Positions 1-15,878 are shown, counted from the first letter of the stretch. The stretch: DNA of 64,000 nucleotides from Candidatus Omnitrophota bacterium (GCA_015232535.1 JADFZM010000001.1:35263-99262); one strand, 5' to 3'. Numbers and translations: made by a program. Notes: generated by a model from the letters alone, not told the origin.

Positions 1-100
1 CGCAATTCCGGTCTCAAGAAAAGGAAAGCCTCCTCTTCTTCTTCCTTTACTCTCGATTATCGAGCGTGTCGTGTTTAATGCCATAAGAAACTCCTCTCCC

Positions 101-805
101 TCAATAGGTGACTCTGTTATATTCCCGCACGTCTTCGTCGACTTCAGCGTAATGAAACATCTTTTCTTTATATCCAAAAATAAAGGCGTAGAAACAAGCC
201 GGTATTTTCCTAACATAAGCATGGAAATGGCTGGCCGCTTCGTTATAGGCCATGCGCCTTTCCGCTATAAGGTCTTCGGAACGGATAATCCCCTGCATCT
301 GGATTTGAAAGTTTTCGCTTAATTTTAATTGCGGGTAAGCCTCGGCTAATGCTAAAACCTTAGAAATAGCGGTATCGAGGCTTTTTCCTTTTAGTTTCGA
401 GACTTCGGTTAAACCGTTTTTCTGTAAAACGTCCATGATAAGCTCGCTTTTCATCGGATCAGGGCCACCGTCGCGGCTATCGGCCATATATTGGAACATT
501 GCCCTTTCGTGTTGAGCATAGGCAATGATCGTATTAGTCAGGTTGATAAAAATATCTTTTCGCCTTTGCAGTTGGACGTCTATTTGGTGCTGTTCCATCT
601 CGGTAAAACGGGAAAGCGCGATGAATTTATTGTAGTAATAAATGCCCAGAAGGATTAAAGCTGTTGCGCAAACGGTAAGGATAATTCCGGAGGTGGTTTT
701 TAAATTATTAAAATCGATCTTTTGCCACCAATGTTTCTTAACCGGAGATAATTCTTCAAAATCCCGGGGAAACATCTTTTTAATCGTTTCGGACATTCTT
801 ACCAT
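101..805 (-). CDS. LemA family membrane protein (MamQ-like by family)
   Basis: N-terminal TM helix followed by LemA-type core (QLQRRKDIFINLTNTII...AYPQLKLSENFQIQMQGI); 234 aa. Confidence 0.75.
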   Translation of the reverse strand: MVRMSETIKKMFPRDFEELSPVKKHWWQKIDFNNLKTTSGIILTVCATALILLGIYYYNKFIALSRFTEMEQHQIDVQLQRRKDIFINLTNTIIAYAQHERAMFQYMADSRDGGPDPMKSELIMDVLQKNGLTEVSKLKGKSLDTAISKVLALAEAYPQLKLSENFQIQMQGIIRSEDLIAERRMAYNEAASHFHAYVRKIPACFYAFIFGYKEKMFHYAEVDEDVREYNRVTY

Positions 806-843
806 TTTATATGCTCCTTGGCTTTAAATAAGTCATACATTAA

Positions 844-1689
844 TTAACCGTGTTTCTTGCGCTCTAAATCCATCGCTTTTTTAAAGCAAACGATCGCGTC
901 TTTATGGTCCCCGGAATTCTCGTAAACAAAACCGAGGGCGTGGTAATAAACCGGTTCCCGTGGGTCAAGGTCGATAGCTTTTTTGTACATCTTTTTTGCT
1001 TCCTCTATTTGTTCCGATTTCTCGTAACAAGTCCCGAGGTTATAAAAGGTGTCCGCGTCGTCGGGATTGATCTCCGCCGCTTTTTGGAAATAACCTAAAG
1101 CCTCGGTATAATTTTCCAGGTGCAAAAGGCATTTGGCAAATTCGAAAATGATATCCGGATCATTCGGGGTTAATGAATCGGCTTTTTTAAAATAATCGAT
1201 AGCATCCTTGTGCTGGCTTAGGTTGACATGGCACATTGCCGACATATACATGACCTCGGCATCTTTTTCGCCTTCTTCTTCTTCTTCTTCTTCGATGTAA
1301 ATTTCAAAATGCTCGAGGGCGCGGGCGAAATCGTTTTTTTGAAAGAATTTGATCCCCTCTTCTTTTTCGAAACTGCGCTTGATGCCCTCATCATGTTTTA
1401 CAAAAATGTCTTCGTAAACCTGGCTTAATCCCTTGATTATTTTTTCGGTCGTTGAGAGCGTGCGGTAAGCGCCGAGTTTTACGTTCTTTAGGATATCGGC
1501 CTTTGGCTTTTCATATGTTGATTGTTTTGATTTTTTCGTCCTGCGGGCTTTTGAACGGCTTTCAGATGAGCCCTTTGACCCAGTATCATCGGATGAATCA
1601 TCAATATCATTTTCGATATCTGCTTCTTCTATAGGTTCTGTTCTCTTTTTTCTCTTCAATTCTTCCATTTTTCCCTCCATGGTACGCAT
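844..1689 (-). CDS. Tetratricopeptide-repeat protein with acidic/basic low-complexity N-terminus (MamA-like architecture)
   Basis: About five TPR-like helical pairs (AIDYFKKADSLTPNDPD, ALGYFQKAAEINPDDAD, AKKMYKKAIDLDPREP, AIVCFKKAMDL); a poly-Glu run is encoded by the GAA repeat at 1273-1293. Confidence 0.75.
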   Translation of the reverse strand: MRTMEGKMEELKRKKRTEPIEEADIENDIDDSSDDTGSKGSSESRSKARRTKKSKQSTYEKPKADILKNVKLGAYRTLSTTEKIIKGLSQVYEDIFVKHDEGIKRSFEKEEGIKFFQKNDFARALEHFEIYIEEEEEEEGEKDAEVMYMSAMCHVNLSQHKDAIDYFKKADSLTPNDPDIIFEFAKCLLHLENYTEALGYFQKAAEINPDDADTFYNLGTCYEKSEQIEEAKKMYKKAIDLDPREPVYYHALGFVYENSGDHKDAIVCFKKAMDLERKKHG

Positions 1690-1777
1690 GTTCTGTAAAA
1701 AGTTTTTACTTTAAATATCCTTATCTTCTGCCATTACAAAAAGTTCTGTTTCTGTGGTTTGCCTCCACTATTAAGAT

Positions 1778-1862
1778 CCCCCTCCCTCGATGGGAGGGGA
1801 AAGGGGAGGGTGGAAATTAAAATTATCACCCCCACCAAGCCTCCCCCGTCAAGGGGGAAGGA
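1778..1862. other. GC-rich structured element: perfect 8 bp GC hairpin (ccctcc-tcgat-ggaggg type), a G3-A-G4-AAA-G4-A-G3 run, and a second C5/G5 hairpin
   Basis: Read directly from sequence between the CDF gene stop (1931) and the TPR gene start (1689); it stands out in an AT-rich genome. Confidence 0.35.
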
Positions 1863-1930
1863 AATATTTCATATCTCCAATCCTATTTTATAGACAATTT
1901 TCATAAAACTATTGACACTATCGGTACGCA

Positions 1931-2884
1931 TTATTGCATGACCGGATTTAGTTGTTTACGGGTGATTACCTGTTTTGGGCTGCGAATAACCCCTATTTTC
2001 GTTTCCTCCTGATTGTCCCTGCAGGTAAAAGTTAGGGTGACGTCTTTTATCTGAATGAAACGCCTAAGAAGAGCCGCTCTTACCTCGCGGGTAATCGCAT
2101 GGCCCTCTTCCACTGTCCTTTGGGGATCGATAAATATTTCCATATCGACCCAAGCCTGTTGCCCGACCCGCCGAACGTGCATATAATTTATGCCTTTTAC
2201 CTCGCGGTATTGCATGATAACTTTCTCGATCAAGGCTTTCTTATCGGCGGGAAGCGATTCGTCGATAAGGTTTTTGAGAGCGGCAATGCCTAATTTTATG
2301 GCCATACGCCCGATCATGAGCCCGACGAAAAATGCGGCTAATGAGTCGAGAATGGTTATCCCTAAGTTTGCTAAAAATATACCGATAGTGACTCCGATCG
2401 ATGAGATCATATCCGAGCGGTTCTCGTTAGCGTTCGCTATTAAAGCCGGGGAATTCATCTTTTTGCCGGCGCAGAAACCGTAAGAAGATAAAATATAGTT
2501 GGCTAAGATAGCTACTATAGCGCAGAAAACGGCGGCCGGATGCGGCGGATGTATATTCCCGCTGGCGATAGCCAATCCGGCATCCCAGAGAATTACAATC
2601 GCTATATAAAGAAGCAAGGTATAAGCAAATACAGCTCCTAGGAATTCCGATTTGCCGCGGCCCCAGGGGTATTTTTTGTCGCTTTTTTTCTCCGAGAGCC
2701 CGACGGTAATAATTACCATTATTGTGCAAAGAACGTCCGTACCGGAGTGGATACCGTCGGCTATGAGCCCTTTTGATCCGGCCAAAGTACCGACGATTAT
2801 CTGGAATGCGGATAGGGTCGTATTGCCCAGAAGCACCATCCAGGGAACGGTTTTAGCGCATTTTACGCATTTATTTTGAATCAT
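1931..2884 (-). CDS. Cation diffusion facilitator (CDF) family divalent-metal efflux transporter
   Basis: Six TM helices with CDF signature (FQIIVGTLAGSKGLIADGIHSGTDV), His/Asp-rich TM2/TM5 sites and a C-terminal cytoplasmic metallochaperone-like domain; 317 aa. Confidence 0.85.
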   Translation of the reverse strand: MIQNKCVKCAKTVPWMVLLGNTTLSAFQIIVGTLAGSKGLIADGIHSGTDVLCTIMVIITVGLSEKKSDKKYPWGRGKSEFLGAVFAYTLLLYIAIVILWDAGLAIASGNIHPPHPAAVFCAIVAILANYILSSYGFCAGKKMNSPALIANANENRSDMISSIGVTIGIFLANLGITILDSLAAFFVGLMIGRMAIKLGIAALKNLIDESLPADKKALIEKVIMQYREVKGINYMHVRRVGQQAWVDMEIFIDPQRTVEEGHAITREVRAALLRRFIQIKDVTLTFTCRDNQEETKIGVIRSPKQVITRKQLNPVMQ

Positions 2885-2897
2885 ATTTTATAAACCT

Positions 2898-3788
2898 TCA
2901 ATCAGCCGGCAATATTTGAATAGCGATATGGCCGATATATTTGTTTTGATCGCGCAAAAGAGATTTGATCCTTTGATTTATTGTCTTTGCTTCAAGTACT
3001 GTTAATTTAGGGCTTAATTGAAGGACAACGTCCAATATTACATACCTTCCTGTCTGCCTGGCGCGCACGTCCTTAACTTTTTCAACCCCGTTTACTTTCT
3101 TTATAAAATCTTTTATCGGTTCGGTGAAATTATCCGGCATGTTTGTATCCATGACCCCTCTTGTGCCCTCTTTCAAGATCATAAAGCTCCCGTGCAGTAC
3201 ATGCAAACACTCGAAAATAGCTATTGCCGGGTCAACCCAGTGCATGCCTTGTCTGGTAACAAGCACGCCCACCGCGACCAGTAATGAGGAGATAACGTCT
3301 ATCTTATTATGCTCGGCATGGGCTTTTAATACCGGGCTGTTTAGCTCCTTACCTCCGCAATGGGAGAATTTATAGAGGAGCGCGTTCACGATGGCGCTTA
3401 AAATTGCTACAAAAAATACAACCATATGCTGTATGACCAAAATACGCTTTGCGATTACCATAAAAGAACTGAAGATAAGCGCTATAGTACCAAGGATCAT
3501 AAAAAAGCTGATAATAACCTGGGCGATGAATTCAATCTTTCCGTAACCATATGGATAGCGGGAATTAGCAGGCTTTTTTGAATACCTTACCCCTATTATT
3601 ACCGCGACGGAAGATGTTACATCGCTCAAGTTGCATAATCCGCTTCCGAGTAAAGCGCGCGACCTTCCCAAAAATCCGACAAAGATCTTAAATGCCGCCA
3701 GGATAAAATTTGCCAAGAGCCCCCAGGCAATTGTTTTATTGGCGCAGGCTTCGCATTTAGCCGGATTTTTAATTTTTGCGGCGCTCAT
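2898..3788 (-). CDS. Cation diffusion facilitator (CDF) family transporter, second tandem copy
   Basis: CDF TM core (ALLGSGLCNLSDVTSSVAVIIG ... HAEHNKIDVISSL) plus C-terminal domain; 296 aa; 4 nt from the previous CDF gene. Confidence 0.85.
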   Translation of the reverse strand: MSAAKIKNPAKCEACANKTIAWGLLANFILAAFKIFVGFLGRSRALLGSGLCNLSDVTSSVAVIIGVRYSKKPANSRYPYGYGKIEFIAQVIISFFMILGTIALIFSSFMVIAKRILVIQHMVVFFVAILSAIVNALLYKFSHCGGKELNSPVLKAHAEHNKIDVISSLLVAVGVLVTRQGMHWVDPAIAIFECLHVLHGSFMILKEGTRGVMDTNMPDNFTEPIKDFIKKVNGVEKVKDVRARQTGRYVILDVVLQLSPKLTVLEAKTINQRIKSLLRDQNKYIGHIAIQILPAD

Positions 3789-4063
3789 TATTCTTCATCC
3801 TCAAACAGAGGTTTTTCATCTTCCGGTAATTCTTCCAACTTCTTCCTTCTTTTAATTTCTCCCCCGATTATTGTAAAGGTCCAAAGCGTCGAGATAACAC
3901 CCAAAAAGAAAGACGCCAGAATTATGTAAATCAGCCCGATATGCCTGCCCTTGAAAAGGGGGATCCAAATACGGACCGGGTCCACGTTCTCGAATATAAA
4001 GAAAACAAGCAATATTACGAGCAAACTGAAAGAGGTGATTTTAAATACTGTAGCTGCCCTCAT
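3788..4063 (-). CDS. Small membrane protein, LapA/DUF1049-like, with acidic C-terminal tail
   Basis: Two hydrophobic helices then KRRKKLEELPEDEKPLFEDEE; overlaps hemL stop and CDF start by 4 nt and 1 nt (operon-embedded). Confidence 0.45.
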   Translation of the reverse strand: MRAATVFKITSFSLLVILLVFFIFENVDPVRIWIPLFKGRHIGLIYIILASFFLGVISTLWTFTIIGGEIKRRKKLEELPEDEKPLFEDEE

Positions 4064-5361
4064 TTTGATTCCTTTATTTTTAATAAAGCATTCTTTATTG
4101 AATGGGCTGTTTTGCTGATTGTTGAATTATCATGAGCGGATGAAACAAAACAAGCCTCATATGCCGAAGGAGGAAAAAGTATCCCTTCCTTAATTAAGAG
4201 GGAAAACAGCTTTGCGTATTTGTTTTTATCAGCCCTTAAGGCGTCTTTATGGCTCTTAACTTTTCCGGATGTGAAAAATACCGTAAAAATTGAGGCAATC
4301 GAGTTTATCGTTAAATCCATATTCAATTTAGCGGATTCTTCTTGAATAATCGCGGTAATTTGTCCGGTTTTTACCTCCAGAGTTCCGTAAATATTATCAT
4401 TTTTATTTAAAGTTTCAAGTGTTTTAATGCCGGCGGCTGTTGCAACCGGGTTACCGGAAAGCGTTCCGGCTTGATAAACAGGCCCTATGGGTGCCAAAAG
4501 CTCCATTATCTCTTTCTTACCGCCGACCGCGCCTATGGGAAATCCGCCGCCGATAATTTTTCCCAGGCAGGTCAGGTCGGGTTTAATATCATAAAATCCC
4601 TGCGCTCCGCCTAATCCTAGACGGAAGCCGGTGATAACTTCATCAAATATAAGCACTATTTTTTCTTTGAGCGTTATTTCACGTAATTTTTTAAGAAAAT
4701 CTTTTTCGGGTAAAACTACCCCTGTGTTGCACAAAACAGGTTCAACGATCACGCAGGCAATTTCATTCTTGTTCTTTTCGATAGCGGAATTCAGAGTTGC
4801 AATATCGTTAAAAGGAACGGAAATAGTGTCTTTAGTATAAGCCGGCAATATGCCCTCGCCCGAAGGAATCCCTAAGGTTAAATTTCCCGAGCCGCTTTTA
4901 ACCAAAAGGCTGTCGAAGTGGCCGTGATAACTGCCGTCAAACTTGATGATCTTTGTCTTTCCGGAAAATGCCCGGGCGAGGCGGATTGATGTCATGCAGG
5001 CCTCGGTGCCGGAGGTTACTAAACGTAACCTATCGATGCTTTTGATATTTTTCTTAATTAGTTCAGCGAGGCGGACTTCTCTTTCGGTTGCTAATCCGAA
5101 ACTCGAGCCGTTTCTAACCGCCGAAATAGCCGCTTTTACGACCGGCTCATAAGCGTGGCCTAATATCCCGACCCCCCAACTCATAACATAATCGATGTAT
5201 TTATTGCCTTTTGTATCGAATATATAAGGCCCGGTTGCTTTCTCGGCAAAGATTATCGGGGTTTCCATTGCTTTAAAACTCCGCACCGGAGAATTGACCC
5301 CTCCGACCAGAGATTTGATGCTTCTTTCGGAAATAGATTTTGGTTTATCAATTGCCATCAT
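4060..5361 (-). CDS. hemL: Glutamate-1-semialdehyde 2,1-aminomutase
   Basis: Class III aminotransferase fold, 433 aa, SLVGGVNSPVRSF ... YIDYVMSWG motifs typical of HemL. Confidence 0.93.
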   Translation of the reverse strand: MMAIDKPKSISERSIKSLVGGVNSPVRSFKAMETPIIFAEKATGPYIFDTKGNKYIDYVMSWGVGILGHAYEPVVKAAISAVRNGSSFGLATEREVRLAELIKKNIKSIDRLRLVTSGTEACMTSIRLARAFSGKTKIIKFDGSYHGHFDSLLVKSGSGNLTLGIPSGEGILPAYTKDTISVPFNDIATLNSAIEKNKNEIACVIVEPVLCNTGVVLPEKDFLKKLREITLKEKIVLIFDEVITGFRLGLGGAQGFYDIKPDLTCLGKIIGGGFPIGAVGGKKEIMELLAPIGPVYQAGTLSGNPVATAAGIKTLETLNKNDNIYGTLEVKTGQITAIIQEESAKLNMDLTINSIASIFTVFFTSGKVKSHKDALRADKNKYAKLFSLLIKEGILFPPSAYEACFVSSAHDNSTISKTAHSIKNALLKIKESK

Positions 5362-5843
5362 AATAAACTCCCAAGCGAGAGCATTTCTTTCTTAAGTTCT
5401 TTTCGGGTAAAGAGCACTGCCGGCTTGATGCGGAAACCCGCCCCTTTTTCATTGACAAAATTTCTGATCTCTTTTACTGATTTAGCGTGCATCATGGTAA
5501 ATGTATCGTAATTAAATGATTTATGCGGTGTTCTTTTATAACAATGCGAGATGCGGTCATCATCAATAAATGTCTTTTTTATGAACTCATCTTTATTGCC
5601 GCAGGTAAACCCGTCCATATTCCAGGCGATAAGTGCGTTTTTCGCGTAACCGGCCCTTTTGTGGTTAAGGACCCCTCGCAGATTCTTAATTATCTTTTTT
5701 TGAGAAAGTTTGTTCAGGATCGCTATTAGCTCCTCTTCTTGCATAAGCAAAGCCGCCGCGGCCTTTGTGAATGGACGGGGCGAGATCTCAAGCTCATTTT
5801 TAGAGAAATACCCGGCAACTTTCTTTTCTTTATCAGTTAACAT
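5358..5843 (-). CDS. Siroheme decarboxylase subunit (AhbA/AhbB, NirD/L/G/H family, AsnC-type HTH)
   Basis: About 160 aa AsnC-like HTH plus C-terminal domain; sits with a paralogous neighbour between radical SAM heme genes and hemL. Confidence 0.7.
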   Translation of the reverse strand: MLTDKEKKVAGYFSKNELEISPRPFTKAAAALLMQEEELIAILNKLSQKKIIKNLRGVLNHKRAGYAKNALIAWNMDGFTCGNKDEFIKKTFIDDDRISHCYKRTPHKSFNYDTFTMMHAKSVKEIRNFVNEKGAGFRIKPAVLFTRKELKKEMLSLGSLL

Positions 5844-6300
5844 TAAGGTTAAGCCTTAATTTATATAATTTTTCCGTAGGAAGGCTGACTATTTCCTTTG
5901 GTTTTAACTTCTTTTTCAATTCATCGAGATTAAATTTAAGCTCCTGTTTTGAGCGGGCGCTTAATGTGAACCACATGTTTAAGCGGTGTTCCCTTAAGTA
6001 ATTGTGGCTTATATTTTGTCGGTTATTGATTATTTCCCTAGTCGTTTTTATTTTCTCTTCGGGGATTTGACAACCGATCAAAGTGCTGACAAGCCCGAGC
6101 TTCTTCGTGTTAAAACTGAAATTAATCCTTTTAAGCAGTTTTTCCTTCTTAAGCCATTTAAGGCGCGAAATAAGCTCTCTTTCTTCGATCCCGCATGATT
6201 TTGCCAAGCTTTTATAAGGCTCGGCAGAGATCTCCAAGCCCTGCTGGGTTTTTGATAAAATACTTTTCATTAAATCGTCTAAATAATATTTCTTACTCAT
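5833..6300 (-). CDS. Siroheme decarboxylase subunit (AhbA/AhbB family), start moved to internal Met
   Basis: AsnC-type HTH (LAKSCGIEERELISRLKWLKKEKLL). The ATG at 6298-6300 forms an ATGA overlap with the upstream radical SAM stop; the ORF-track N-terminal extension would overlap that gene. Confidence 0.68.
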   Translation of the reverse strand: MSKKYYLDDLMKSILSKTQQGLEISAEPYKSLAKSCGIEERELISRLKWLKKEKLLKRINFSFNTKKLGLVSTLIGCQIPEEKIKTTREIINNRQNISHNYLREHRLNMWFTLSARSKQELKFNLDELKKKLKPKEIVSLPTEKLYKLRLNLNVN

Positions 6301-7316
6301 GAGGCAACCGCCTCTTTTGCTAAAACGCAAGTCCTGTCTTCGGACATAAAATCTCCCGTATCGGCAAAGGCCCTGGCGCGGCAACCGCGGCAAGAAATCT
6401 TATATCCGCAATCTCCGCAGCTTCCTCTGAGGTCATTTTTCCTCAATGCGTTAAACACAATCGATCCTTTCCAGACTTTCCCGATGGAATTCTTCCTTAA
6501 GTTACCGGCGGTAATGGGCAAGTATCCGCAGGGATAAACGTATCCTCTTGAGGAGATGAATAAAACCGATGTTCCCGCCAGGCATCCTCCGGACATTTTG
6601 CCTTCCGAAAACCTTACATATTGCGGGGCGCAAGTCGGGCGTATCTCTAAAGAAGATGACTCCGAGATGTTTTTTATTTCCCTAAGAGCTTCTTCAATAT
6701 CATTTGCCTCTAATCTTGATTTATCATCGATTTCCTTCCCGCAGCCGACCGGAACAAGAACAAAATAATGAACAGCCATGGCTTTTATCGAAAGAGCTAA
6801 ATCGGCGATTGTGCGGATTTCGTTAAGGTTGTTCTTGGTCACGGTAAAGTTGATTTGAAAAGGGATTTGCTCTTTCCTTAATATGTCAGCGGCATTCACG
6901 GTCTGTTTAAAGGCGCCTAAAACTCCCCGGGAAGAATCATGCTTCTTTTCATCGCTTGAATCAAGGCTTAGGCTGACGCGGCGGACACCGTATTTTTTTA
7001 TAAGGCCGGCCTCTTTCTCTTTTAATAGAACACCGTTAGTAGCTAAGGCCAAAGTTAATCCTTTTTGAGCGGCATAAAACATGATTTCAAAGATGTCTTC
7101 TCTTAATAAAGGCTCGCCGCCGCTTAAGACTAGAACGGAAGAGCCGAAGGATGTTTTTATAGAATCGATCAGGCGAAAGGCTTCGGCAGTTGTCAGCTCA
7201 TCGCCCGATTCGCTTTTTGTCATCCGGCAAAAGGCGCACTTAAGGCTGCACTTTTTTGTTGTTTCCCAAAATATCATTCTGGGGATCAGATCCACTTTGT
7301 TGCCTCCTTGGCCCAA
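6297..7316 (-). CDS. Radical SAM/SPASM protein of the NirJ-like AhbC/AhbD type (Fe-coproporphyrin synthase or heme synthase)
   Basis: CxxxCxxC cluster (CSLKCAFC), SGGEPLL glycine-rich SAM motif, C-terminal SPASM Cys cluster (GSCGDCGYKISCRGCRARAF). Confidence 0.75.
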   Translation of the reverse strand: MGQGGNKVDLIPRMIFWETTKKCSLKCAFCRMTKSESGDELTTAEAFRLIDSIKTSFGSSVLVLSGGEPLLREDIFEIMFYAAQKGLTLALATNGVLLKEKEAGLIKKYGVRRVSLSLDSSDEKKHDSSRGVLGAFKQTVNAADILRKEQIPFQINFTVTKNNLNEIRTIADLALSIKAMAVHYFVLVPVGCGKEIDDKSRLEANDIEEALREIKNISESSSLEIRPTCAPQYVRFSEGKMSGGCLAGTSVLFISSRGYVYPCGYLPITAGNLRKNSIGKVWKGSIVFNALRKNDLRGSCGDCGYKISCRGCRARAFADTGDFMSEDRTCVLAKEAVAS

Positions 7317-8275
7317 TAACTGATAATTATGTCCGCGCCGGCGCGTTTAATAGACTGAAGTATTTCAAGCGCAACCGACTTTTCGTCCAGCCACCCTTTT
7401 AAGTGCGCCGCTTTGACCATTGAATATTCTCCGCTGACATTGTATGCGGCTATAGGGATATTCACTTTATCGCGTATGGATTGTATTATATCCAGATAAG
7501 ACAAGGCCGGTTTCACCATGACTATATCCGCGCCTTCCTCGATATCGAGAAATATTTCGCGAATGGCCTCTCTTTTGTTGCCGAAATCCATTTGATACCC
7601 TTTTCTGTCGCTTCCCTTCGGGGTTGAATCGTATATCCCCCGGAACGGGCCGTAAAAATTCGAAGCATATTTTGCGGAATAACTAATAATTGATGTGTCG
7701 GTAAACCCGTTTTTGTCGAGGGTTTCTCTGATTGCTTTCACCTGCCCGTTTGCCATAGCGGACGGCGCAACCATATCCGCTCCCGCTTTAGCGTAAGAAA
7801 CGGCGATTTTGGCTAAAGTTTCCGCGGTTTTTGAGTCATCAATTTGAAGATGAGCCCCGTTTTTGCCGCTTGTTTTCTTAGCTATGCCGCAATGGCCGTG
7901 GTCTGTAAAAGCGCATAAGCATACATCAGCGATAATTATCAAATCGCTCGACTTTTTAATGTTCTTTATAGCCTTATGGAATTGGCTTTCTTCGTTATAA
8001 CTAGATGAGCCGGAGGAGTCTTTTTTAGGCGATGAACCAAAAAGCAAAATGCTTTTTATGCCGGACTTTCCCAAAGCCTCCGCCTCTCTAAGAAGGCATT
8101 CGCTCGAGAATTTATTAATGCCCGGCATCGAAGGCACAGCTTCGGTACCTTTGCCATCTTTGAAAAAGATAGGCATTATTAAATCATCAATATTTAATTC
8201 TGTTTCGCGCACTAAAGAACGTAACAGAGGGTTTTTTCTTAATCTGGTAGTCTTATTTTTGAGCGACAAAGGCAT
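7286..8275 (-). CDS. hemB: Porphobilinogen synthase (delta-aminolevulinate dehydratase)
   Basis: N-terminus MPLSLKNKTTRLRKNPLLRSLVRETELNIDDLIMPIFF aligns with classical HemB start; active-site region DVCLCAFTDHGHCG; the start at 8275 is an internal Met of the ORF-track call. Confidence 0.92.
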   Translation of the reverse strand: MPLSLKNKTTRLRKNPLLRSLVRETELNIDDLIMPIFFKDGKGTEAVPSMPGINKFSSECLLREAEALGKSGIKSILLFGSSPKKDSSGSSSYNEESQFHKAIKNIKKSSDLIIIADVCLCAFTDHGHCGIAKKTSGKNGAHLQIDDSKTAETLAKIAVSYAKAGADMVAPSAMANGQVKAIRETLDKNGFTDTSIISYSAKYASNFYGPFRGIYDSTPKGSDRKGYQMDFGNKREAIREIFLDIEEGADIVMVKPALSYLDIIQSIRDKVNIPIAAYNVSGEYSMVKAAHLKGWLDEKSVALEILQSIKRAGADIIISYWAKEATKWI

Positions 8276-8325
8276 TTTTATTAAATTGTTGAAATCGTTT
8301 ATATTGTTAAGCTGTTTGATCAAGG

Positions 8326-9483
8326 TTAAAGTATTGATTTTGATTCGTTTACTAAAACATCCTCTGTTTTTGTTGAAGTTTGCTCTAAGTAACAAGCCGG
8401 GTCTTCAGCCCAAAGTGAGCCGTAATAAGCCTTTGCCCGGGCCCGGCATCCGCCGCATATTTCTTTATGCCGGCAAGAACCGCAGCGGCCTTCTAAGTGG
8501 TCTTTCTTATTTCTAAATTGTTGAAGCAGTTCATTGTTCCGGTCGTTAAGAATATCAAATAGCGGTTTTTTGCGCACATTGCCTAAGAGCGAATCACGCA
8601 AGAATTGACATGGAAAAACGTCGCCGTTTGAATCAAGATAAACAACCCTATCCCCCGCAGAACAGCCGCGGTGCGCTGTTATGCATGAAACAGCCTCTTT
8701 TTTATCCGCAAGGTTTTCAAGCATAAAAATACCGTCTGCAGGATTATCGGTTGTAAGCACTTCAAATTCAGGGTCTTTAAGTGATATTTCTCGGACCTTA
8801 AGCAAGAATTTCTCCATTAATTTCCTTTTGTCCTCCAGAGGCAGGTCTTGTTCTGACGAAGCCCTTCCGGAATATACCAAATGATAAAGGCAGAAGCGCT
8901 TAGTGCCGCTTTGAACTGTTTTATCAAGCACATAAAATAGGTCATAACTATTTGAAGCGGTTAAAGTAAATCTTACCCCGGTTTTCACTCCGGAATTGTT
9001 TAAGAGCTTTATACCTTCCCAGCTTGCGTTAAATGAGCCGGTAGAGCCGCGGAAAATATCATGCCATTCTTCCCTGCCGTCTATGCTGACTCCTACATAA
9101 TCGACTTTGGCTTCTTTGATCTTCTTGGCCATTTTGGTATTTATCAAGGTGCCGTTAGTTGAAAGCCCGACGCGCAGCCCTTCGTCCTTGCAGGCTTTGA
9201 TAATATCGAAAATATTAGGGCGTAAAAGCGGCTCCCCTCCGCTAAGCAATACAATCGGGGGGTTTAGCTTCTTGATCTCACTTGCCAGGTTTATGCACTC
9301 TGTATCGGTAAAATCAGCTTCTTTTAATTCCGGAGATGATTCGCGATAACAATGAGCGCATTTTAAATTGCATTTGCTTATAATATTCCAGACAAACAAA
9401 GGGCCCATTGCCCTTAAGGTATGTTCGGTCCTCTCGCCTTTATGTATTTTAGTCCATGGGATCATAATGAATTCTCCAGGCAA
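8326..9483 (-). CDS. Radical SAM/SPASM protein of the NirJ-like AhbC/AhbD type
   Basis: CNLKCAHCY cluster, LSGGEPLL motif, C-terminal SPASM cluster (GRCGSCRHKEICGGCRARA). Confidence 0.75.
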   Translation of the reverse strand: MPGEFIMIPWTKIHKGERTEHTLRAMGPLFVWNIISKCNLKCAHCYRESSPELKEADFTDTECINLASEIKKLNPPIVLLSGGEPLLRPNIFDIIKACKDEGLRVGLSTNGTLINTKMAKKIKEAKVDYVGVSIDGREEWHDIFRGSTGSFNASWEGIKLLNNSGVKTGVRFTLTASNSYDLFYVLDKTVQSGTKRFCLYHLVYSGRASSEQDLPLEDKRKLMEKFLLKVREISLKDPEFEVLTTDNPADGIFMLENLADKKEAVSCITAHRGCSAGDRVVYLDSNGDVFPCQFLRDSLLGNVRKKPLFDILNDRNNELLQQFRNKKDHLEGRCGSCRHKEICGGCRARAKAYYGSLWAEDPACYLEQTSTKTEDVLVNESKSIL

Positions 9484-10970
9484 GATTTGATCAATCCGGC
9501 AACCGTATGTTCTTTTGCCGAATGTATCTGCCTTATCCCGATTTTCTTGAGCATCCCGGTTGTGACAGGGCCGATAGAATAAAACGGGGTCTCTTCGGTT
9601 AAGGAGCCGTTTATATTGCTTGGAATATTGGCAAAGAATGTTTTAACTGATTTAGGGCTTAAAAAGAATATTCCGTCGGACTTCTTGGCGAGGGCCTTGG
9701 CTATCCTTGTTTTATCGGGCTGCCCTTCAATGTTATACACTGTGCAATCGGTTAGCTTAGCCCCGGCTCTAATTAAAATTCCTTTTAGATAATCGCGGTC
9801 AAGGCTTGTGCGTAAAAGAGCGATATTTTTATCATTAATACCTTTATTTCTCAGAGCTATGGCTAAATTCCTGGTGGTGAACTTATCCGGCATAAGCGCC
9901 GGGTTTATACCGAATTTTATGAATTCTCCCGCTGTTCCTGACCCGACGCAAGCAATCCTTCCTTTTAGCAGGGTTTTATTTCTGTTTAATGCAAAAAATC
10001 TCTTCAGAAAATAATATACGCCGTGTCGGGAGGTAAAAACAAGCCAGTCAAAGGCCTTAATATCGGCGATTATGTTATCAAGGTATGATGTGTCCTTATT
10101 TGGAACGACTTTTATCATCGGTAGTCGTTCAACCTTAGCGCCTAATGATTCTAACCCGAGGGAAATATCATTGTTTAATGTTTCGCTGGCTGTTGAGATA
10201 AAACTTTTGTTTGAAAGAGGTTTTAAGTTAGGATTCAGGCGGTAAGCAAGCTTAACCGTATCGCCTATAACACAGATAGCCGGAGCTTTTAAATCAGCGG
10301 ATTTATTGGCGATCCGAGCTAAATTAGACATAACAACTTTTTCTTTATCCGTCGTGCCACTTTGAATGACAGCGGACGGAGTTTTAGGGTCTTTACCGAA
10401 GGCGATGAGTTTATCGGTTATTGATTTAAGGTTAGATAATCCCATCATGATTACTAGAGTTCCCGAGAAATTGGCGGCGTGTTTCCAGTTTATGCTTTCT
10501 TTTTCTTTAGACGGGTCTTCGTGGCCGGTTAAAACCATAAAACCGCTTGAAACGCCACGGAAAGTGAGAGGTATCCCGCACACTTCGGGAACAGAATAAA
10601 AAGAGCTTACTCCCGGAATAACTTCGCAATCAATATTGTTTTCTCTTAAAAACAGCATTTCTTCCTGGCCGCGGCCGAAAATAAAAGGATCGCCGCCTTT
10701 AACTCTGGCGACTGTCTTGCCTTTTGAGGCAAAAGATAGGATGGTTTGGTTTATCTTTTCTTGATCTATCGATCGTCCCTTTTCTTTTCCTACAAATTTT
10801 AAGATTGCGGATGGCTTGGCATATTTTAATATGTCTTTGGAAATAAGCCGGTCGAAAAGGATAACGTCTGATTTCTTCAGGCATTCAACGGCTTTGAGGG
10901 TTAAAAGCTTAGGGTCCCCCGGTCCTGAGCCGATCAAATAAACTTTTCCATTTTTTATTTTATTATTCAT
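9462..10970 (-). CDS. cobA: Uroporphyrinogen-III C-methyltransferase fused to uroporphyrinogen-III synthase
   Basis: N-terminal half has the SUMT signature (VYLIGSGPGDPKLLTLKA ... VARVKGGDPFIFGRGQEE); C-terminal half is HemD-like (AFDWLVFTSRHGV). Confidence 0.88.
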   Translation of the reverse strand: MNNKIKNGKVYLIGSGPGDPKLLTLKAVECLKKSDVILFDRLISKDILKYAKPSAILKFVGKEKGRSIDQEKINQTILSFASKGKTVARVKGGDPFIFGRGQEEMLFLRENNIDCEVIPGVSSFYSVPEVCGIPLTFRGVSSGFMVLTGHEDPSKEKESINWKHAANFSGTLVIMMGLSNLKSITDKLIAFGKDPKTPSAVIQSGTTDKEKVVMSNLARIANKSADLKAPAICVIGDTVKLAYRLNPNLKPLSNKSFISTASETLNNDISLGLESLGAKVERLPMIKVVPNKDTSYLDNIIADIKAFDWLVFTSRHGVYYFLKRFFALNRNKTLLKGRIACVGSGTAGEFIKFGINPALMPDKFTTRNLAIALRNKGINDKNIALLRTSLDRDYLKGILIRAGAKLTDCTVYNIEGQPDKTRIAKALAKKSDGIFFLSPKSVKTFFANIPSNINGSLTEETPFYSIGPVTTGMLKKIGIRQIHSAKEHTVAGLIKSCLENSL

Positions 10971-11862
10971 TAATCTTTTTCAACTGTATCTTTAAACTGG
11001 CGATTAAATTGTCTGTAATTCCTGAGGCATTGTCTTTCGCCCCTTTTTCACTTTCCTTTATGAAACATTTTGCTTTTTCGCTGTAATATTTCGCGTTTAT
11101 TGAAAAGTTGCCTTTAATAAATTTGGCATAAACACCGAACGGTGTCCGGCAACCTATTCCTAAAGCTTTCAATACATTTCTCTCTAAAAGAGCGGATTTC
11201 TCCGTTTCAATACAAGAGCTTTTTCTAAGAATACTGTTTAAATCCTTATCGTTATCCCTTGTTTGAGCGCAAATTATGCCTTGCCCGGCCGCAGGGACAA
11301 AGCTTTCGCTGTCGAAATACCGGACGATCAAGTTTTCATATCCTAATCGTTTCAAACCGCAAGCAGCCAATATAAGCCCGTCGTATTTGCCCCCGTTCAT
11401 CTTTCTGATGCGGGTATCGATATTCCCTCTTATGGGCAATACAATCGCTTTGGGCTCGATTTCTTGTATAAAGTACATCCGACGCGGGCTGTCTGTGCCG
11501 AGCTTCAAACCCGCGAGTTGGCCCGATTTTAAACCATCGCGCAGTACCAGGCAATCTCTTCGGTCTTCTCTTTTGGCGAAACAGGACAACTTAGTGCCTT
11601 TTTGAAGTTTCACCGGGACATCTTTTAAACTATGCACGGCGCAATCAATTTCTTTATTTATAAGTGCTCGCTCGATTTCTTTTGTGAAAATGCCTGTTCC
11701 GATAGCCGTAATCTTATTTTTGCGGTCCCGGTCGCCTTGGGTCAGGATAGTTTTTATCCGGTAATCAAGGTTTACATTCTTTCTTTTTAAAAAGGCTATG
11801 AATTCAAAGAGCTGTTTATTCGCTAAAGCGCTTTTCCTTATACCAAAGATTATTCTGCGCAT
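10963..11862 (-). CDS. hemC: Hydroxymethylbilane synthase (porphobilinogen deaminase)
   Basis: KTILTQGDRDRKNKITAIGTGIFTKEIERALINKEIDCAVHSLKDVP motif block. Confidence 0.9.
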   Translation of the reverse strand: MRRIIFGIRKSALANKQLFEFIAFLKRKNVNLDYRIKTILTQGDRDRKNKITAIGTGIFTKEIERALINKEIDCAVHSLKDVPVKLQKGTKLSCFAKREDRRDCLVLRDGLKSGQLAGLKLGTDSPRRMYFIQEIEPKAIVLPIRGNIDTRIRKMNGGKYDGLILAACGLKRLGYENLIVRYFDSESFVPAAGQGIICAQTRDNDKDLNSILRKSSCIETEKSALLERNVLKALGIGCRTPFGVYAKFIKGNFSINAKYYSEKAKCFIKESEKGAKDNASGITDNLIASLKIQLKKINE

Positions 11863-12905
11863 AAAAGTAACGAAGGAAGTACGCCTGTGTTCTTTTTCTG
11901 ATCGAGGTACATTTCCCTTCGGATTATCTCCTCCGCTTTGTTCGCTTCGATCGAGCGGCTATAGAGTGTTCTATCAATTACCGGCGATAAGTCATCGATA
12001 TTGTATAGCTTTACACCGGCAATATTCCTAACCGCTTCCTCAACATTTCGAGGCACGCCAAGATCGACGAAAATAATTCTTTTATGACGGCCGTGCAATA
12101 TCGCGCTCACCATATCTTTGCTGATAATATGAGGAGCGGCAGTGGCGGCGACAACTATATCTGAAAGCGCGATTTCTTTTGCTATCTTTGAGAAATCGGT
12201 AACGCGCACGTTAAGCTTAACTGCGGCGTTTTTGGCTTTTGCTATATCGCGGTTTGTAACAACGATTTCCTTAAGGGGAAGCTCGGATAGTTTCTTTGTT
12301 GTCATAACGCCTATTTTCCCGGCGCCGATTACAAGAATTCTTTTATTCGATAAATCCTGTTCCTTTTTAATAAGGTCGACAACAACTCCGGATATCGAGG
12401 TAACTCCGCGGGATATGCCGGTCAAGCTGCGAACTTTCTTCCCTATGCGCAGGGAATCCTGAATAGTTTTATGCAGTATAGAGCCTATTGCCTTTGATGA
12501 ATCGGCTTTTTCATAGGCCTTTTTGATCTGGCCGAGGATCTGGTTTTCTCCTAAAACCATTGAGTCCAGGCCGCTCGCCACCCGGTTAAGGTGTATGACC
12601 GCCTCTTCGTTGGTTTTATTGTAGAAGTAATGCTCAATATAACTTTGCGGTAATTTATGCGTGCGGCAGATAAAATTTGTCAGCTTAGCGGTAATTTTAG
12701 AAATGCTTTCTCCTACGGCATATATCTCGACCCGGTTACATGTTGAGAGCATCAAAGCCTCTTCTATATCCAAATTGGATGATAGTTCGCGGTAATATTT
12801 ACTCAGCGATTTATCCTCAAAGCTGAATTTTTCGCGTATTTCTAGCGGGGCCTTTTTGTGGTTTGTCCCGATAAGAACAATATTTAAGTTATTGCTGATA
12901 GGCAT
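11850..12905 (-). CDS. hemA: Glutamyl-tRNA reductase
   Basis: LSTCNRVEIY catalytic Cys motif; NADP-binding LVIGAGKIG. Confidence 0.9.
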   Translation of the reverse strand: MPISNNLNIVLIGTNHKKAPLEIREKFSFEDKSLSKYYRELSSNLDIEEALMLSTCNRVEIYAVGESISKITAKLTNFICRTHKLPQSYIEHYFYNKTNEEAVIHLNRVASGLDSMVLGENQILGQIKKAYEKADSSKAIGSILHKTIQDSLRIGKKVRSLTGISRGVTSISGVVVDLIKKEQDLSNKRILVIGAGKIGVMTTKKLSELPLKEIVVTNRDIAKAKNAAVKLNVRVTDFSKIAKEIALSDIVVAATAAPHIISKDMVSAILHGRHKRIIFVDLGVPRNVEEAVRNIAGVKLYNIDDLSPVIDRTLYSRSIEANKAEEIIRREMYLDQKKNTGVLPSLLLCAE

Positions 12906-13677
12906 GATGGCTTACCATAAACAGGCTTACGCCGAAGAAAGTTGTTAACATGGCTAAAAATCCCACAACCGAGATGACCGATAGCCAAAAGTGTTTAAGT
13001 TTAAATGCTTTTTCCAGGATCACAGCCAAAGCGTAAATTATAAGGGTGATTAGCGCCCAGGTCTCTTTTGGGTCCCAGTTCCAATAAGTTCCCCAGGCTG
13101 TATGCGCCCAAATCGAGCCGGTCGCTATGCCGAAGAATAAAAGTATTACTCCGAAAATAATAAGGCCGCTATTCAAAGGCTGAAGGCCTTTTGTGTCTTT
13201 GCCCCTTTTCTCGGCGATTATCGAATAAACGCTTATAGCAAAAGAAATCCCAAAGGCGCTGTAACTTAAAATAATTGCCGGAACGTGTATTCCCAGCCAA
13301 AAACTTTTTAAGAGCGGGTTAAGCGGTTGGATTGTTTTATCCAGCGTTAGGTCGTATATTAAGATAATATCAAACAATAAAAACGCCAATCCCTGTATGA
13401 TCTTCCCGGTATTTTCTTTGATAAAAATGATATAGACAGCGCTTAAAAGCCAGGCGTAAAAATAAGTGATCTCAAAAAGCGAGACCATTGGCAGATGCCC
13501 CTGTTCGCGGTACCTTATAATAAGGTAAAAGAAACCGGCGGTTAAAGCGACTATCAGCCATTGCTTTGAGTAAGTGAAAAAAACGGGCTGCTTTTTGGAA
13601 ACGAAAAGAAGATACAAAACAGTCCCGATCAGATAAAAGAATGCGGATGTATAGAAAAATAATATGTTATATTGCAT
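12889..13677 (-). CDS. CcsA/HemX-family cytochrome c assembly membrane protein
   Basis: Polytopic membrane protein with Trp-rich WWD motif (WAHTAWGTYWNWDPKETWALI) and conserved His residues; it occupies the hemX position of the hem operon. Confidence 0.78.
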   Translation of the reverse strand: MQYNILFFYTSAFFYLIGTVLYLLFVSKKQPVFFTYSKQWLIVALTAGFFYLIIRYREQGHLPMVSLFEITYFYAWLLSAVYIIFIKENTGKIIQGLAFLLFDIILIYDLTLDKTIQPLNPLLKSFWLGIHVPAIILSYSAFGISFAISVYSIIAEKRGKDTKGLQPLNSGLIIFGVILLFFGIATGSIWAHTAWGTYWNWDPKETWALITLIIYALAVILEKAFKLKHFWLSVISVVGFLAMLTTFFGVSLFMVSHHAYQQ

Positions 13678-14122
13678 TAGCTAGTTTATCCCTAATTGCT
13701 TTTGCTTTTGCCGGGCTTTGGCCGTTTGTAGAAATACCTATGGTCAGCCCTTTTCTTTTTAATATTGCCGGCATTATTATTGAGCCCGGCCCGCTTTTAT
13801 CTACTACATTGACTAAGGTATTCGCTTTATTAGCGTCGGATAATACTTTCTTATTGACTTTAGCGTTATCTGTTGCCGCTACTATCAATTTATATTTCTT
13901 TAATGAAATATTCTTAGGATAAAGGGATTTTATGCATTTTATCTTCCCTTTTGACCTTAAACGTTCAATCGGCGCGATTATTTCCGGGCTGATACAGGTA
14001 ATTTTTGCCCCGAAATTTCTGAAGACCGATATTTTCCTATAAGCTACTTTTCCTCCGCCGACGACCAAACAATTTTCGCCTTTTACCTTGAGGCATACCG
14101 GCATATAGCTGCATAATTTCAT
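13667..14122 (-). CDS. Precorrin-2 dehydrogenase / sirohydrochlorin ferrochelatase (SirC/CysG N-domain type)
   Basis: Rossmann GGGKVA motif (CLVVGGGKVAYRKI); about 150 aa; first gene of the heme operon. Confidence 0.78.
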   Translation of the reverse strand: MKLCSYMPVCLKVKGENCLVVGGGKVAYRKISVFRNFGAKITCISPEIIAPIERLRSKGKIKCIKSLYPKNISLKKYKLIVAATDNAKVNKKVLSDANKANTLVNVVDKSGPGSIIMPAILKRKGLTIGISTNGQSPAKAKAIRDKLANAI

Positions 14123-14132
14123 GTCAGTTAAT

Positions 14133-15323
14133 TTACCTCTTTTTTAAAATAATATGACAAACATTACATTTCCCGCGGTATTCATGCGGGGAAACAGCTC
14201 CTTTTAATATAGGAGGAGGATTAGGCAAAATATCTCCCGCATCAGTCGGCAGCTGTCCTCCTGTTTTCATAATAATATGACAGGCGGTACAAGGCTTATT
14301 ACGGCTTCTGTGCGGGCTAAGAGCTCCGGGTGTTATCGGTTGAGCGGCCTCGTTTTGTGAAAACCCTAAACTTCTTTTTGATGAAATAGTATATTCGATG
14401 ATTTGCCCTCTGCGGGAAACTATAACCTTAGCCTTAAACCTGTTTTTTACCATTCTGGTTGCTTCAGTAAAAGCAACTAAATCCGGGGTGGCTATCTTTT
14501 CAATTCCAACAACCATATCTCCGGCCAAAACTCCCGATTCAGCCGCCTCGAGAGATATCTCATCGATCAACAACCCCTTTGTATTCGGCGGGATATTGAA
14601 TTCCGTGGCTAACTCAGGCGTAAGGGGAATAAGCTCCATACCGAGCCAATGCCCTTCGATAAGTTCTTTCGATGCCGCCCCTTGCTCTTTAGGAGTAGGC
14701 AGCTGCAAATTAGGGTCAACCGGAGCCGCATTCATTGTGCCGGCTTCGGCTGTTTCTGCCGGAGAATTATTGGCAAAAGCGATTTGATGAGCCGCAGGAT
14801 CGGCATTGTTTTGCTGTTGGGGTTTAGCTTCTAAGGGTACAGAGTTAGAATCCCCGGGAGCGTTTTTACCCGTAACGCCCATATCAAGGTTAAAAACGCG
14901 CTTGATATTGTCATGAATGCCTAATTTGTTTTCCAGGGTTATATAAAGCGGCTGGCCGTTTCTTAATATATCTAAAAGAGCGCCTTGGTCCAAGCTTGTA
15001 TCTTTCGTAACCTTTAGAAAGTCGGATATTTTCTTTGTTTTCTTATTATTGATCGATTTTATAAGGTCTCCGCTGCGTACACCCGAACTGTAAGCCGGAT
15101 CCTCACACCAATTTACAACAACCCCAGCTTCATCTTTCGGTATATAAAATTCCATGGCATTAGCCGGTGTGATATCGCTTACCGACATTCCGGCCCACTC
15201 TGCCTCACCTGCCCCGATGTGCATCAGCGCCGCGAGAAAAATAAGGCCTATCAAGCAAACGGATAATATAAGGAAGAACCTTTGCTTGTTTTTATGTTTA
15301 TATTCGGCTAAGATGTTAGGCAT
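14133..15323 (-). CDS. Membrane-anchored PDZ-PDZ protein with two C-terminal CxxCH heme motifs of magnetochrome type (MamP / MamE-Cter-like)
   Basis: N-terminal TM, two PDZ-like segments (GVRSGDLIKSI; GVLAGDMVVGIEKI), then SPHRSRNKPCTACHIIM and SPHEYRGKCNVCHIIL. Confidence 0.6.
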   Translation of the reverse strand: MPNILAEYKHKNKQRFFLILSVCLIGLIFLAALMHIGAGEAEWAGMSVSDITPANAMEFYIPKDEAGVVVNWCEDPAYSSGVRSGDLIKSINNKKTKKISDFLKVTKDTSLDQGALLDILRNGQPLYITLENKLGIHDNIKRVFNLDMGVTGKNAPGDSNSVPLEAKPQQQNNADPAAHQIAFANNSPAETAEAGTMNAAPVDPNLQLPTPKEQGAASKELIEGHWLGMELIPLTPELATEFNIPPNTKGLLIDEISLEAAESGVLAGDMVVGIEKIATPDLVAFTEATRMVKNRFKAKVIVSRRGQIIEYTISSKRSLGFSQNEAAQPITPGALSPHRSRNKPCTACHIIMKTGGQLPTDAGDILPNPPPILKGAVSPHEYRGKCNVCHIILKKR

Positions 15324-15335
15324 AATTAATTATTT

Positions 15336-15611
15336 TTAGTCTTTTTTGATGGAGGCTTTTTCTTCTGGTTTTAACTCGATCCGCTCAATTGCCGTATTAC
15401 AATCTTTACAGACCCAAAGTTGTCTTTTAGACCCGGTCATGTATAAGCCCATAATGAGTAAGGGTATCCCCAGAACCGGACCGATGAAAAAAAGCGATGA
15501 AAATACACCGCCAACTATTAATACTCCTCCGAATTTACGGCTGTGGCGCGGCCCGGAATAAGGCTGCATTTCTCCGTTACACAAATTACAAATAAGCGAT
15601 TTATCAGACAT
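15336..15611 (-). CDS. Small membrane protein with split zinc-ribbon (CxxC ... CxxC) flanking a TM hairpin
   Basis: CNLCNGEM at N-terminus, hydrophobic core, CKDCNTAI at C-terminus; 91 aa. Confidence 0.45.
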   Translation of the reverse strand: MSDKSLICNLCNGEMQPYSGPRHSRKFGGVLIVGGVFSSLFFIGPVLGIPLLIMGLYMTGSKRQLWVCKDCNTAIERIELKPEEKASIKKD

Positions 15612-15630
15612 TGATTCCCTTTCTAAGTGG

Positions 15631-15816: not shown

Positions 15817-15878
15817 TTTTCCTCCGTTATTAGTTTGTTTTAAACAATATCAACAATTTTTCAAGAACAAAAAAATTA

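Follow-up and report, generated by a model that had tools for sequence, protein, structure and literature searches.

A mamM-mamB-mamA-mamQ-type gene block and an embedded heme pathway in a 64,000-nt stretch of Omnitrophota DNA

Comparison with described magnetosome gene clusters

Among the proteins encoded in magnetosome gene clusters (MGCs), MamA has a scaffold role and MamQ a role in membrane remodeling. In Magnetospirillum, the magnetosome membrane contains a heterodimer of the paralogous cation diffusion facilitator (CDF) proteins MamB and MamM, in which MamM stabilizes MamB; both carry iron into the vesicle lumen, and MamB also starts vesicle formation (PMC7170241, PMC10470508). Distant orthologues introduced singly did not complement, and complementation was better when the Magnetovibrio MamM and MamB were expressed together (PMC10470508). 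The core set of MGC genes consists of mamA, mamB, mamE, mamI, mamK, mamM, mamP, and mamQ (PMC10470508). Here, we analyze a 64,000-nt stretch of Omnitrophota DNA (the window; all coordinates refer to it, and translations were made by a program), in which positions 101-3788 hold four genes on the minus strand. In the direction of transcription, these encode CDF proteins of 296 and 317 aa, a tetratricopeptide repeat (TPR) protein of 281 aa, and a LemA-family protein of 234 aa, with spacings of 13, 241, and 38 nt. As the original prediction had it, the four open reading frames (ORFs) lie in tandem on one strand and belong to the expected Pfam families. We conclude, with a probability of roughly 0.93, that the block at 101-3788 constitutes the mamM-mamB-mamA-mamQ part of an MGC of the magnetite type, carried by an uncultured Omnitrophota bacterium from freshwater; the magnetosome interpretation first put forward for the block is upheld by the best-scoring NCBIfam models, the placement of the CDF proteins in a tree, a cysteine signature, the transport-site residues, and synteny. 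Family membership, paralogue assignment, residue conservation, and conservation of gene order are established directly by the comparisons below.

The closest described clusters are the Omnitrophota MGCs of Lin et al. (2020), found in 20 metagenome-assembled genomes (MAGs), and one of them is almost certainly the very same sequence: the source MAG is almost certainly nHLH_bin2 from Hulun Lake sediment (p__Omnitrophota; c__koll11; o__UBA10015; f__kpj58rc; GC content 42.78%) (PMC7602337). The (small transmembrane [TM] protein)-mamM-mamB-mamA-mamQ order of the window matches that of other MAGs in the same study (loci L001-L003, L005, and L081-L084 of our data set). Lin et al. obtained their MAGs from cells enriched magnetically and retained those in which manual inspection confirmed a magnetosome cluster, and trees of MamA, MamB, MamK, MamM, and MamQ have been calculated from these genomes (PMC7602337). 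Since the source MAG was thus published as magnetotactic and was chosen for its magnetosome cluster, the magnetosome reading is right but already known, and it adds little to the known core mam genes, the catalogued Omnitrophota clusters, and the published MAG. In GenBank, the window proteins are identical to entries MBF0384271, MBF0384273, MBF0384274, and MBF0384287, and the labels given there are generic only ("cation transporter," "LemA family protein").

Compared with the mamAB operons of Magnetospirillum gryphiswaldense and M. magneticum, the block has the four protein families in common, mamA and mamQ are adjacent in both, and mamP, mamE, and mamI are part of the same cluster. The MamB and MamM proteins of Magnetospirillum and of the window share the cysteines of an N-terminal CxxC motif and Cys138, as well as transport sites specific to each paralogue. 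On the other hand, sequence identity to the Magnetospirillum proteins is only 27-29%, the NCBIfam cutoffs are not reached by any of the four window proteins, the gene order is M-B-A-Q rather than the Magnetospirillum-type M-N-O-P-A-Q-R-B (loci L009 and L031), and the window MamA has an extra charged N-terminal segment of ∼70 aa.

The four proteins of the block

Both CDF proteins share with FieF/YiiP the fold of a six-TM Cation_efflux domain followed by a ZT_dimer C-terminal domain (CTD), with the TM2/TM5 tetrahedral site at the same position; for the 317-aa protein, the Pfam scores are 127 bits (PF01545, Cation_efflux) and 51 bits (PF16916, ZT_dimer), and the full-length PDB matches of the two proteins are FieF structures (68-76 bits). 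Among the NCBIfam models, MamB (NF033616) scores best for the 317-aa protein (239.5 bits), with a lead of 31 bits over MamM (208 bits) and of 135 bits over FieF (105 bits), and MamM (NF033615) scores best for the 296-aa protein (249.9 bits, followed by MamB with 189.7 and FieF with 117 bits). Conversely, proteobacterial MamM ORFs best match the 296-aa protein and proteobacterial MamB ORFs the 317-aa protein. The MamB and MamM reference sequences of M. gryphiswaldense (MSR-1) used here were validated by NCBIfam, where they reach 456 and 467 bits, respectively, on the correct models (cutoff 350 bits). The paralogue assignment inverts the one suggested earlier from protein length, in which the two CDF proteins were compared with a MamB of about 297 aa and a MamM of about 318 aa: it is the 296-aa protein that is MamM-like and the 317-aa protein that is MamB-like. 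Either paralogue is 296-304 aa long in the Omnitrophota relatives, save for a few MamB-type proteins of 316 aa. Because the assignment runs the opposite way and the lengths differ among relatives, the size match is a coincidence, and size matching was dropped as evidence.

To place the two proteins in a tree, we collected loci by a one-genome-per-species scan seeded with the two window CDFs and two references. The resulting 80 loci (L001-L080) contributed 117 CDF ORFs, which together with three references gave a set of 120 sequences; the tree was calculated by neighbor joining (NJ) from Kimura distances over 292 columns, with 100 bootstraps. The magnetosome-context CDFs form an 80-member clade (bootstrap 53%, rising to 97% once eight sister sequences are added), the members of which come from magnetosome-gene contexts or magnetotactic lineages, and clostridial, syntrophic, and other housekeeping CDFs fall outside it. 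Both window proteins are found among the magnetosome CDFs and apart from the housekeeping CDFs. The 296-aa protein lies in a 33-member MamM clade (71%) together with MSR-1 MamM and with the CDFs from Nitrospirae, Desulfobacterota, and Proteobacteria that occupy the MamM position. The 317-aa protein lies in an Omnitrophota plus Planctomycetota clade (98-100%) inside the magnetosome CDF clade, and this adjoins the MamB-position CDFs of Nitrospirae and of MAGs labeled Geobacteraceae (24%). It should be noted that several of the MAGs labeled Geobacteraceae, Geobacter, or Desulfuromonadales in the data set (L010-L012, L014, L017, L019, L020, and L026; lake metagenomes) contain full mamP-mamM-mamB-mamA-mamE-mamQ clusters.

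The alignment of the 120 sequences also reveals residues that follow the same division (Table 1). The three cysteines Cys6, Cys9, and Cys138 (MSR-1 MamB numbering) are present in 79 of the 80 magnetosome-clade CDFs and in none of the 40 housekeeping CDFs. The 317-aa protein has the same numbering as MSR-1 MamB, without a single insertion or deletion up to residue 283, such that C6, C9, H46, D50, C138, E154, D158, and D247 are all collinear. Of the 47 magnetosome-clade CDFs that do not belong to the MamM clade, 45 show the site A pattern H-D-[D/E]-D, which the 317-aa protein shares; the Glu at position 154, where MSR-1 MamB has Asp, occurs in 20 of these 47 MamB-type proteins. Both the MamB site H46-D50-D154-D158 and the cysteines C6, C9, and C138 reportedly have a functional role. 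Within the MamM clade, position 46 is Tyr, Phe, or Cys in 32 of 33 members (the remaining one is gapped), and the Cys found in the window protein instead of the Tyr of MSR-1 is present in all 6 Omnitrophota sequences of the clade. The combined signature could be used to classify CDFs across phyla in cases that the NCBIfam equivalog cutoffs miss: the three cysteines mark magnetosome CDFs, and site A distinguishes H-D-[D/E]-D (MamB type), [Y/F/C]-D-H-D (MamM type), and H-D-H-D (housekeeping proteins).

Table 1. Signature residues of the CDF proteins (site A: positions 46, 50, 154, and 158)
Protein	Cysteines	Site A
Window, 317 aa	C6, C9, C138	H-D-E-D
MSR-1 MamB	C6, C9, C138	H-D-D-D
Window, 296 aa	C12, C15, C144	C-D-H-D (C52-D56-H160-D164)
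MSR-1 MamM	C6, C9, C139	Y-D-H-D
Housekeeping CDFs of the data set	none of the three	H-D-H-D (E. coli FieF: D-D-H-D)

The 281-aa TPR protein has a charged N-terminal extension of ∼70-100 aa followed by roughly five repeats, as claimed before: three strong ones within ∼178-277 and weaker TPR_16/ANAPC3 matches within ∼108-203. A best-match comparison with MamA comes out in its favor, with the NCBIfam MamA model (NF040959) ranking first at 123 bits, 55 bits ahead of the runner-up model (68 bits), and aligning end to end (residues 71-277 against model positions 4-204 of 204). MamA structures (4XI0, 5LFL, and 3VTX) match the protein over residues ∼132-279 and are among the longest natural matches in the PDB. 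The ranking of PDB matches was not decisive in this case, as designed and OGT TPR proteins score above MamA. The gene is syntenic throughout the Omnitrophota relatives examined.

For the 234-aa LemA-family protein, an N-terminal cytoplasmic tail and one TM segment (∼38-58) are predicted ahead of the LemA domain (Pfam PF04011, 96.7 bits, residues 73-229), and MamQ (NF040966) is its sole NCBIfam match (99.7 bits). The best-match analysis thus favors MamQ at the level of models. At the level of sequences, alphaproteobacterial MamQ has no lead over the LemA protein of Thermotoga maritima: the latter (2ETD) aligns with residues 57-222 at 76.7 bits, compared with 43-83 bits for proteobacterial MamQ. 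Differences from generic LemA lie in the greater length of the window protein (234 versus ∼185 aa), in its N-terminal tail, and in its relatives. It has ∼58 close homologues (43-64% identity), of which all source-named ones are from Omnitrophica, and beyond these the scores fall sharply to generic LemA proteins of 185-200 aa with 28-38% identity. In an NJ tree, it belongs to an Omnitrophota plus Planctomycetota clade (83%), the members of which, wherever their context is known, are all encoded at the position of MamQ within magnetosome clusters. Neither scores nor the NJ tree separate MamQ from generic LemA. Since sequence alone cannot tell the two apart, the MamQ assignment rests on conserved position: the LemA gene comes directly after mamA in another nine Omnitrophota loci as well as in the Planctomycetota locus L006, and mamA and mamQ are likewise adjacent in Proteobacteria.

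Position speaks for the block as a whole. The complete order of a small TM gene (∼91 aa), mamM, mamB, mamA, and mamQ is repeated in these nine other Omnitrophota loci (L001-L005 and L081-L084), preceded by either mamP or a heme gene cluster. The co-occurrence of four individually common families, on which the original prediction was built, is therefore meaningful and not a matter of chance.

Alternative readings of the block

A number of observations weigh against the assignment. None of the four proteins reaches the equivalog cutoff of its best NCBIfam model: 239.5 bits for the MamB-type protein (NF033616) and 249.9 bits for the MamM-type protein (NF033615) compare with 350 bits in both cases, 123 bits for the MamA-type protein with 200 bits, and 99.7 bits for the MamQ-type protein with 250 bits. 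The MamB model may be tuned to Proteobacteria, and more generally the NCBIfam equivalog models miss deep-branching Mam orthologues. The MamQ-type LemA proteins do not form one clade apart from generic LemA in the NJ tree (46%). The placement of the CDF proteins, which holds for both at the level of the magnetosome clade and for the 296-aa protein at the level of MamM, is less firm for the 317-aa protein, as the link between the Omnitrophota MamB-type proteins and proteobacterial MamB has a bootstrap of only 5-24%. Finally, the MamM-specific residues of the CTD, a check of which had been proposed, are for the most part not kept in the MamM-like protein. In MSR-1 MamM, the CTD metal sites are formed by W247, D249, and H285 (central) and by H264 and E289 (peripheral) (PMC7170241); in the 296-aa protein, I251, D253, K268, and A289 stand at the positions of W247, D249, H264, and H285, and E289 is without a counterpart, so only D249 is retained. 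Because these ligand residues vary in the MamM of the deltaproteobacterium BW-1 as well (PMC7170241), they define the alphaproteobacterial MamM and not the whole family. In the 317-aa protein, the CTD looks more like that of MamM (W245, D247, and H262) and matches MamM CTD structures in the PDB, and the CTD of the 296-aa protein has no match among the MamM CTD structures; PDB best matches are misleading as a guide to the paralogue assignment, given that the MamB-type protein finds MamM CTDs and the MamM-type protein finds none.

These last points bear on an alternative that we consider unlikely, namely that both CDF proteins are lineage-specific MamM duplicates, such that the lineage has no orthologue of proteobacterial MamB and the 317-aa protein no vesicle-forming role. 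Apart from the MamM-like CTD, it would explain why the MamB-position CDFs of Omnitrophota, Nitrospirae, and Desulfobacterota lie nearer to the MamM clade than to proteobacterial MamB in the NJ tree (at the same 5-24%), and an origin of MamB by duplication of MamM has in fact been proposed (Keren-Khadmy et al., 2020; PMC7170241). It is difficult to reconcile, however, with the 31-bit lead of the MamB hidden Markov model over the MamM model for the 317-aa protein, with the collinearity with MSR-1 MamB through position 283, with a site A pattern (H-D-[D/E]-D) that is common to proteobacterial MamB and unlike that of every MamM-clade member, and with the fact that proteobacterial MamB proteins find the 317-aa protein as their best match.

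A second possibility, to which we assign a very low probability, is that the genes are true mam homologues in a silent or decaying cluster and that the organism makes no magnetosomes. Silent magnetosome clusters do occur in a non-magnetotactic phototroph (PMC9938234), and the cluster in the window is interrupted by ∼10 kb of heme genes and by fixX-fixC (see below). Against this, the ORFs are all intact and tightly packed on one strand, the transport-site and cysteine residues are conserved, the DNA was derived from magnetically collected cells, and four MAGs with MamB identities of 72-76% retain the arrangement together with its heme insertion, which indicates purifying selection.

It is exceedingly improbable that the block is a chance neighborhood of housekeeping genes unrelated to magnetosomes, in which two CDFs for Zn/Co/Fe efflux would lie next to LemA and TPR proteins of the generic kind. 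In favor of this reading, each family is common by itself, the four scores lie under the NCBIfam Mam cutoffs, the LemA protein is as close to Thermotoga LemA as to alphaproteobacterial MamQ, and generic TPR proteins rank above MamA in the PDB search. Against it, the CDF proteins lie in the magnetosome clade and carry the three-cysteine signature, which none of the 40 housekeeping CDFs examined has, nine further Omnitrophota loci keep the gene order together with mamP, mamE, and mamI, and the source MAG stems from magnetically enriched cells.

With 101-3788 read as a mamM-mamB-mamA-mamQ segment, we infer iron transport, heterodimerization, co-transcription, and magnetosome formation in this organism from homology with the Magnetospirillum proteins, from the conserved transport residues, and from the conserved context. 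The 296-aa MamM and the 317-aa MamB would act as a pair in the magnetosome membrane, exchanging cytoplasmic Fe2+ for protons of the vesicle lumen; MamB would additionally nucleate vesicle formation and be stabilized by MamM, MamA would self-assemble on the cytoplasmic side of the vesicle as its coat or scaffold, and MamQ, with its single TM segment, would contribute to membrane invagination. The four genes would form the tail of a tightly packed, ∼20-kb string of minus-strand genes that starts near a helix-turn-helix (HTH) gene and also holds mamI, mamE, a gene for a PDZ protein, genes for magnetochrome proteins, and mamP.

The wider cluster and the embedded heme pathway

The features of the window are collected in Table 2. 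All genes between 101 and 19900 lie on one strand, with ORFs that mostly overlap or are closely spaced, and the core genes mamM, mamB, mamA, mamQ, mamP, mamE (type), and mamI are co-located in this interval. The magnetochrome genes had been placed 10 kb from the block, and the gene for the two-heme MamP is indeed found at a distance of 10.3 kb. A consensus scan of 1-16000 for sigma-70 promoters and terminators gave counts at the level of shuffled sequence (36 versus 32.7 and 19 versus 20.1, respectively) and is thus uninformative as to where operons begin or end.

Table 2. Coordinates of features in the window
Feature	Position	Strand	Description
LemA-family gene, mamQ type	101-805	minus	234 aa; Pfam, NCBIfam MamQ, synteny
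TPR gene, mamA type	844-1689	minus	281 aa; NCBIfam MamA, synteny
mamB-mamA spacer	1690-1930	minus	241 nt; three G+C-rich stem-loops
CDF gene, mamB type	1931-2884	minus	317 aa; NCBIfam MamB, residues, tree
CDF gene, mamM type	2898-3788	minus	296 aa; NCBIfam MamM, tree, residues
Conserved 91-aa two-TM protein	3788-4063	minus	directly upstream of mamM, 1-nt overlap
Siroheme-dependent (Ahb) heme pathway	4060-14122	minus	eleven genes; NCBIfam assignments
mamP	14133-15323	minus	396 aa; two PDZ regions, CTACH and CNVCH; NCBIfam MamP 209.6 bits
91-aa CxxC...CxxC protein with TM segments	15336-15611	minus	conserved beside mamP
510-aa Q/N/M/G-rich protein	15879-17411	minus	three zinc-ribbon-like CxxC...CPxC pairs, C-terminal CSNCH
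PDZ protein	17449-18036	minus	195 aa; PDZ matches
MamE-type trypsin-PDZ protease	18040-19467	minus	475 aa; NCBIfam MamE 249.9 bits, generic DegP 290 bits
TM protein	19493-19714	minus	73 aa
MamI	19730-19900	minus	56 aa; NCBIfam MamI 49.2 bits (cutoff 80)
fixX-like ferredoxin and fixC-like flavoprotein genes	19957-21578		between the HTH gene and mamI
Excisionase/MerR-type HTH protein	21575-22150	minus	191 aa; TIGR01764, weak MamR-like HTH match
Actin-like gene	28991-30196		Pfam Volactin 240 bits
Actin-like gene	30147-31181		Pfam Volactin 248 bits
feoB	36649-38760		
Fur-family regulator	39315-39749		
pst-type phosphate ABC transporter genes, P-type ATPase	40981-47666		

Synteny with the Omnitrophota relatives reaches beyond the block. 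The 91-aa two-TM protein, which has a weak, sub-threshold Pfam match to LapA_dom, directly precedes mamM in all nine relatives (77-94 bits). In L001 and L003-L005, the upstream order is HTH gene, 73-aa protein, mamE-type gene, PDZ gene, 510-aa-type gene, 91-aa CxxC protein, and mamP; the CxxC protein is always directly before mamP (103-117 bits), the HTH homologue precedes the 73-aa protein and mamE, and the 195-aa PDZ and mamE-type genes are syntenic with those of the window. L084 has the same layout, with two HTH genes and a called gene of the Pfam MamI family at the place corresponding to MamI. The 510-aa protein, which belongs to no named family, has weak MamP and MamT magnetochrome matches and homologues in the Omnitrophota clusters (242-350 bits). 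Downstream (3') of mamQ, a region that for the window lies beyond coordinate 1, the relatives encode a ∼600-aa PDZ plus CitMHS/ArsB protein, a TauE protein, small PLDc_N proteins, and a PDZ protein, and several of them also feoB, fecR, and feoA.

Between mamP and the small-TM gene that precedes mamM, the window holds a complete heme pathway of the siroheme-dependent (Ahb) type, comprising sirC, a ccsB/hemX-like gene, hemA, hemC, cobA-hemD, ahbC, hemB, ahbD, ahbA, ahbB, and hemL, the ORFs of which abut or overlap one another and the flanking mam genes. The same insertion is present in a total of four Omnitrophota MAGs and five loci, that is, in the window and in L002 (positions 3-4104), L081 (1-8834), L082 (1-8589), and L083 (1-8595), where L002 and L082 belong to nDJH6_bin5, L081 to JADFXT, and L083 to JADFXQ. 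L001, L003, L004, L005, and L084 lack it, and in these five loci the small-TM gene comes directly after mamP. The two carriers with a taxonomy both belong to the family kpj58rc, and nDJH2_bin13 and nDJH2_bin18, without the insertion, to GCA-002753745. The embedded pathway is apparently not discussed by Lin et al. (2020), the main text of which does not mention heme (PMC7602337), and among the results listed by a literature search there was no report that joins the magnetosome with siroheme or heme biosynthesis, which is weak evidence of absence only; as an observation, an Ahb pathway inside the mam gene string of this lineage may thus be new.

A tentative explanation, which we regard as doubtful, is that kpj58rc recruited a complete siroheme-dependent heme pathway into its magnetosome operon and thereby coupled heme supply transcriptionally to the magnetochrome proteins. 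The c-type magnetochrome proteins so coupled would be MamP, the MamE-type protease, and the 510-aa protein, which would control the redox state of iron during magnetite growth, and mamM-mamB-mamA-mamQ would be the 3' end of a combined heme-plus-magnetosome transcription unit. The alternative to such functional coupling is that the heme genes are a housekeeping operon caught inside the cluster. Were the heme genes co-regulated with the mam genes, the embedded pathway would provide a direct genomic link between heme supply and magnetochrome-dependent biomineralization.

The fixX-like and fixC-like genes have no counterpart in L001, L003-L005, or L084, and look like a second lineage-specific insertion, in this case of a redox module. 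nDJH6_bin5 contains two diverged heme-mamM-mamB-mamA-mamQ copies, on contigs JADFYJ010000024 (L002) and JADFYJ010000001 (L082), which may represent either a real duplication or two co-binned strains (reported contamination 3.2%).

The spacer between mamB and mamA is 241 nt long in the window and 254 nt in L082, as opposed to 14-92 nt in most relatives. Its predicted RNA fold has a minimum free energy of -70.9 kcal/mol (z = -2.1), and the sequence of its first hairpin is single-copy within the window. The G+C content of the window is 0.36-0.46 per 2-kb segment, mostly 0.40-0.45.

No match to the NCBIfam MamK model was found in the window, and mamL and mamO were not identified in it. Further along lie two tandem, overlapping actin-like genes of the Volactin family (28991-31181), which possibly encode the filament proteins of the cluster (MamK/Mad28 type). 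At a distance of ∼15 kb from the mam genes lie the feoB and Fur-family genes. According to Lin et al. (2020), magnetosome clusters are as a rule accompanied by feoB (PMC7602337), and the window feoB fits this pattern. The feoB and Fur-family genes are followed by the pst-type phosphate transporter genes and a P-type ATPase.

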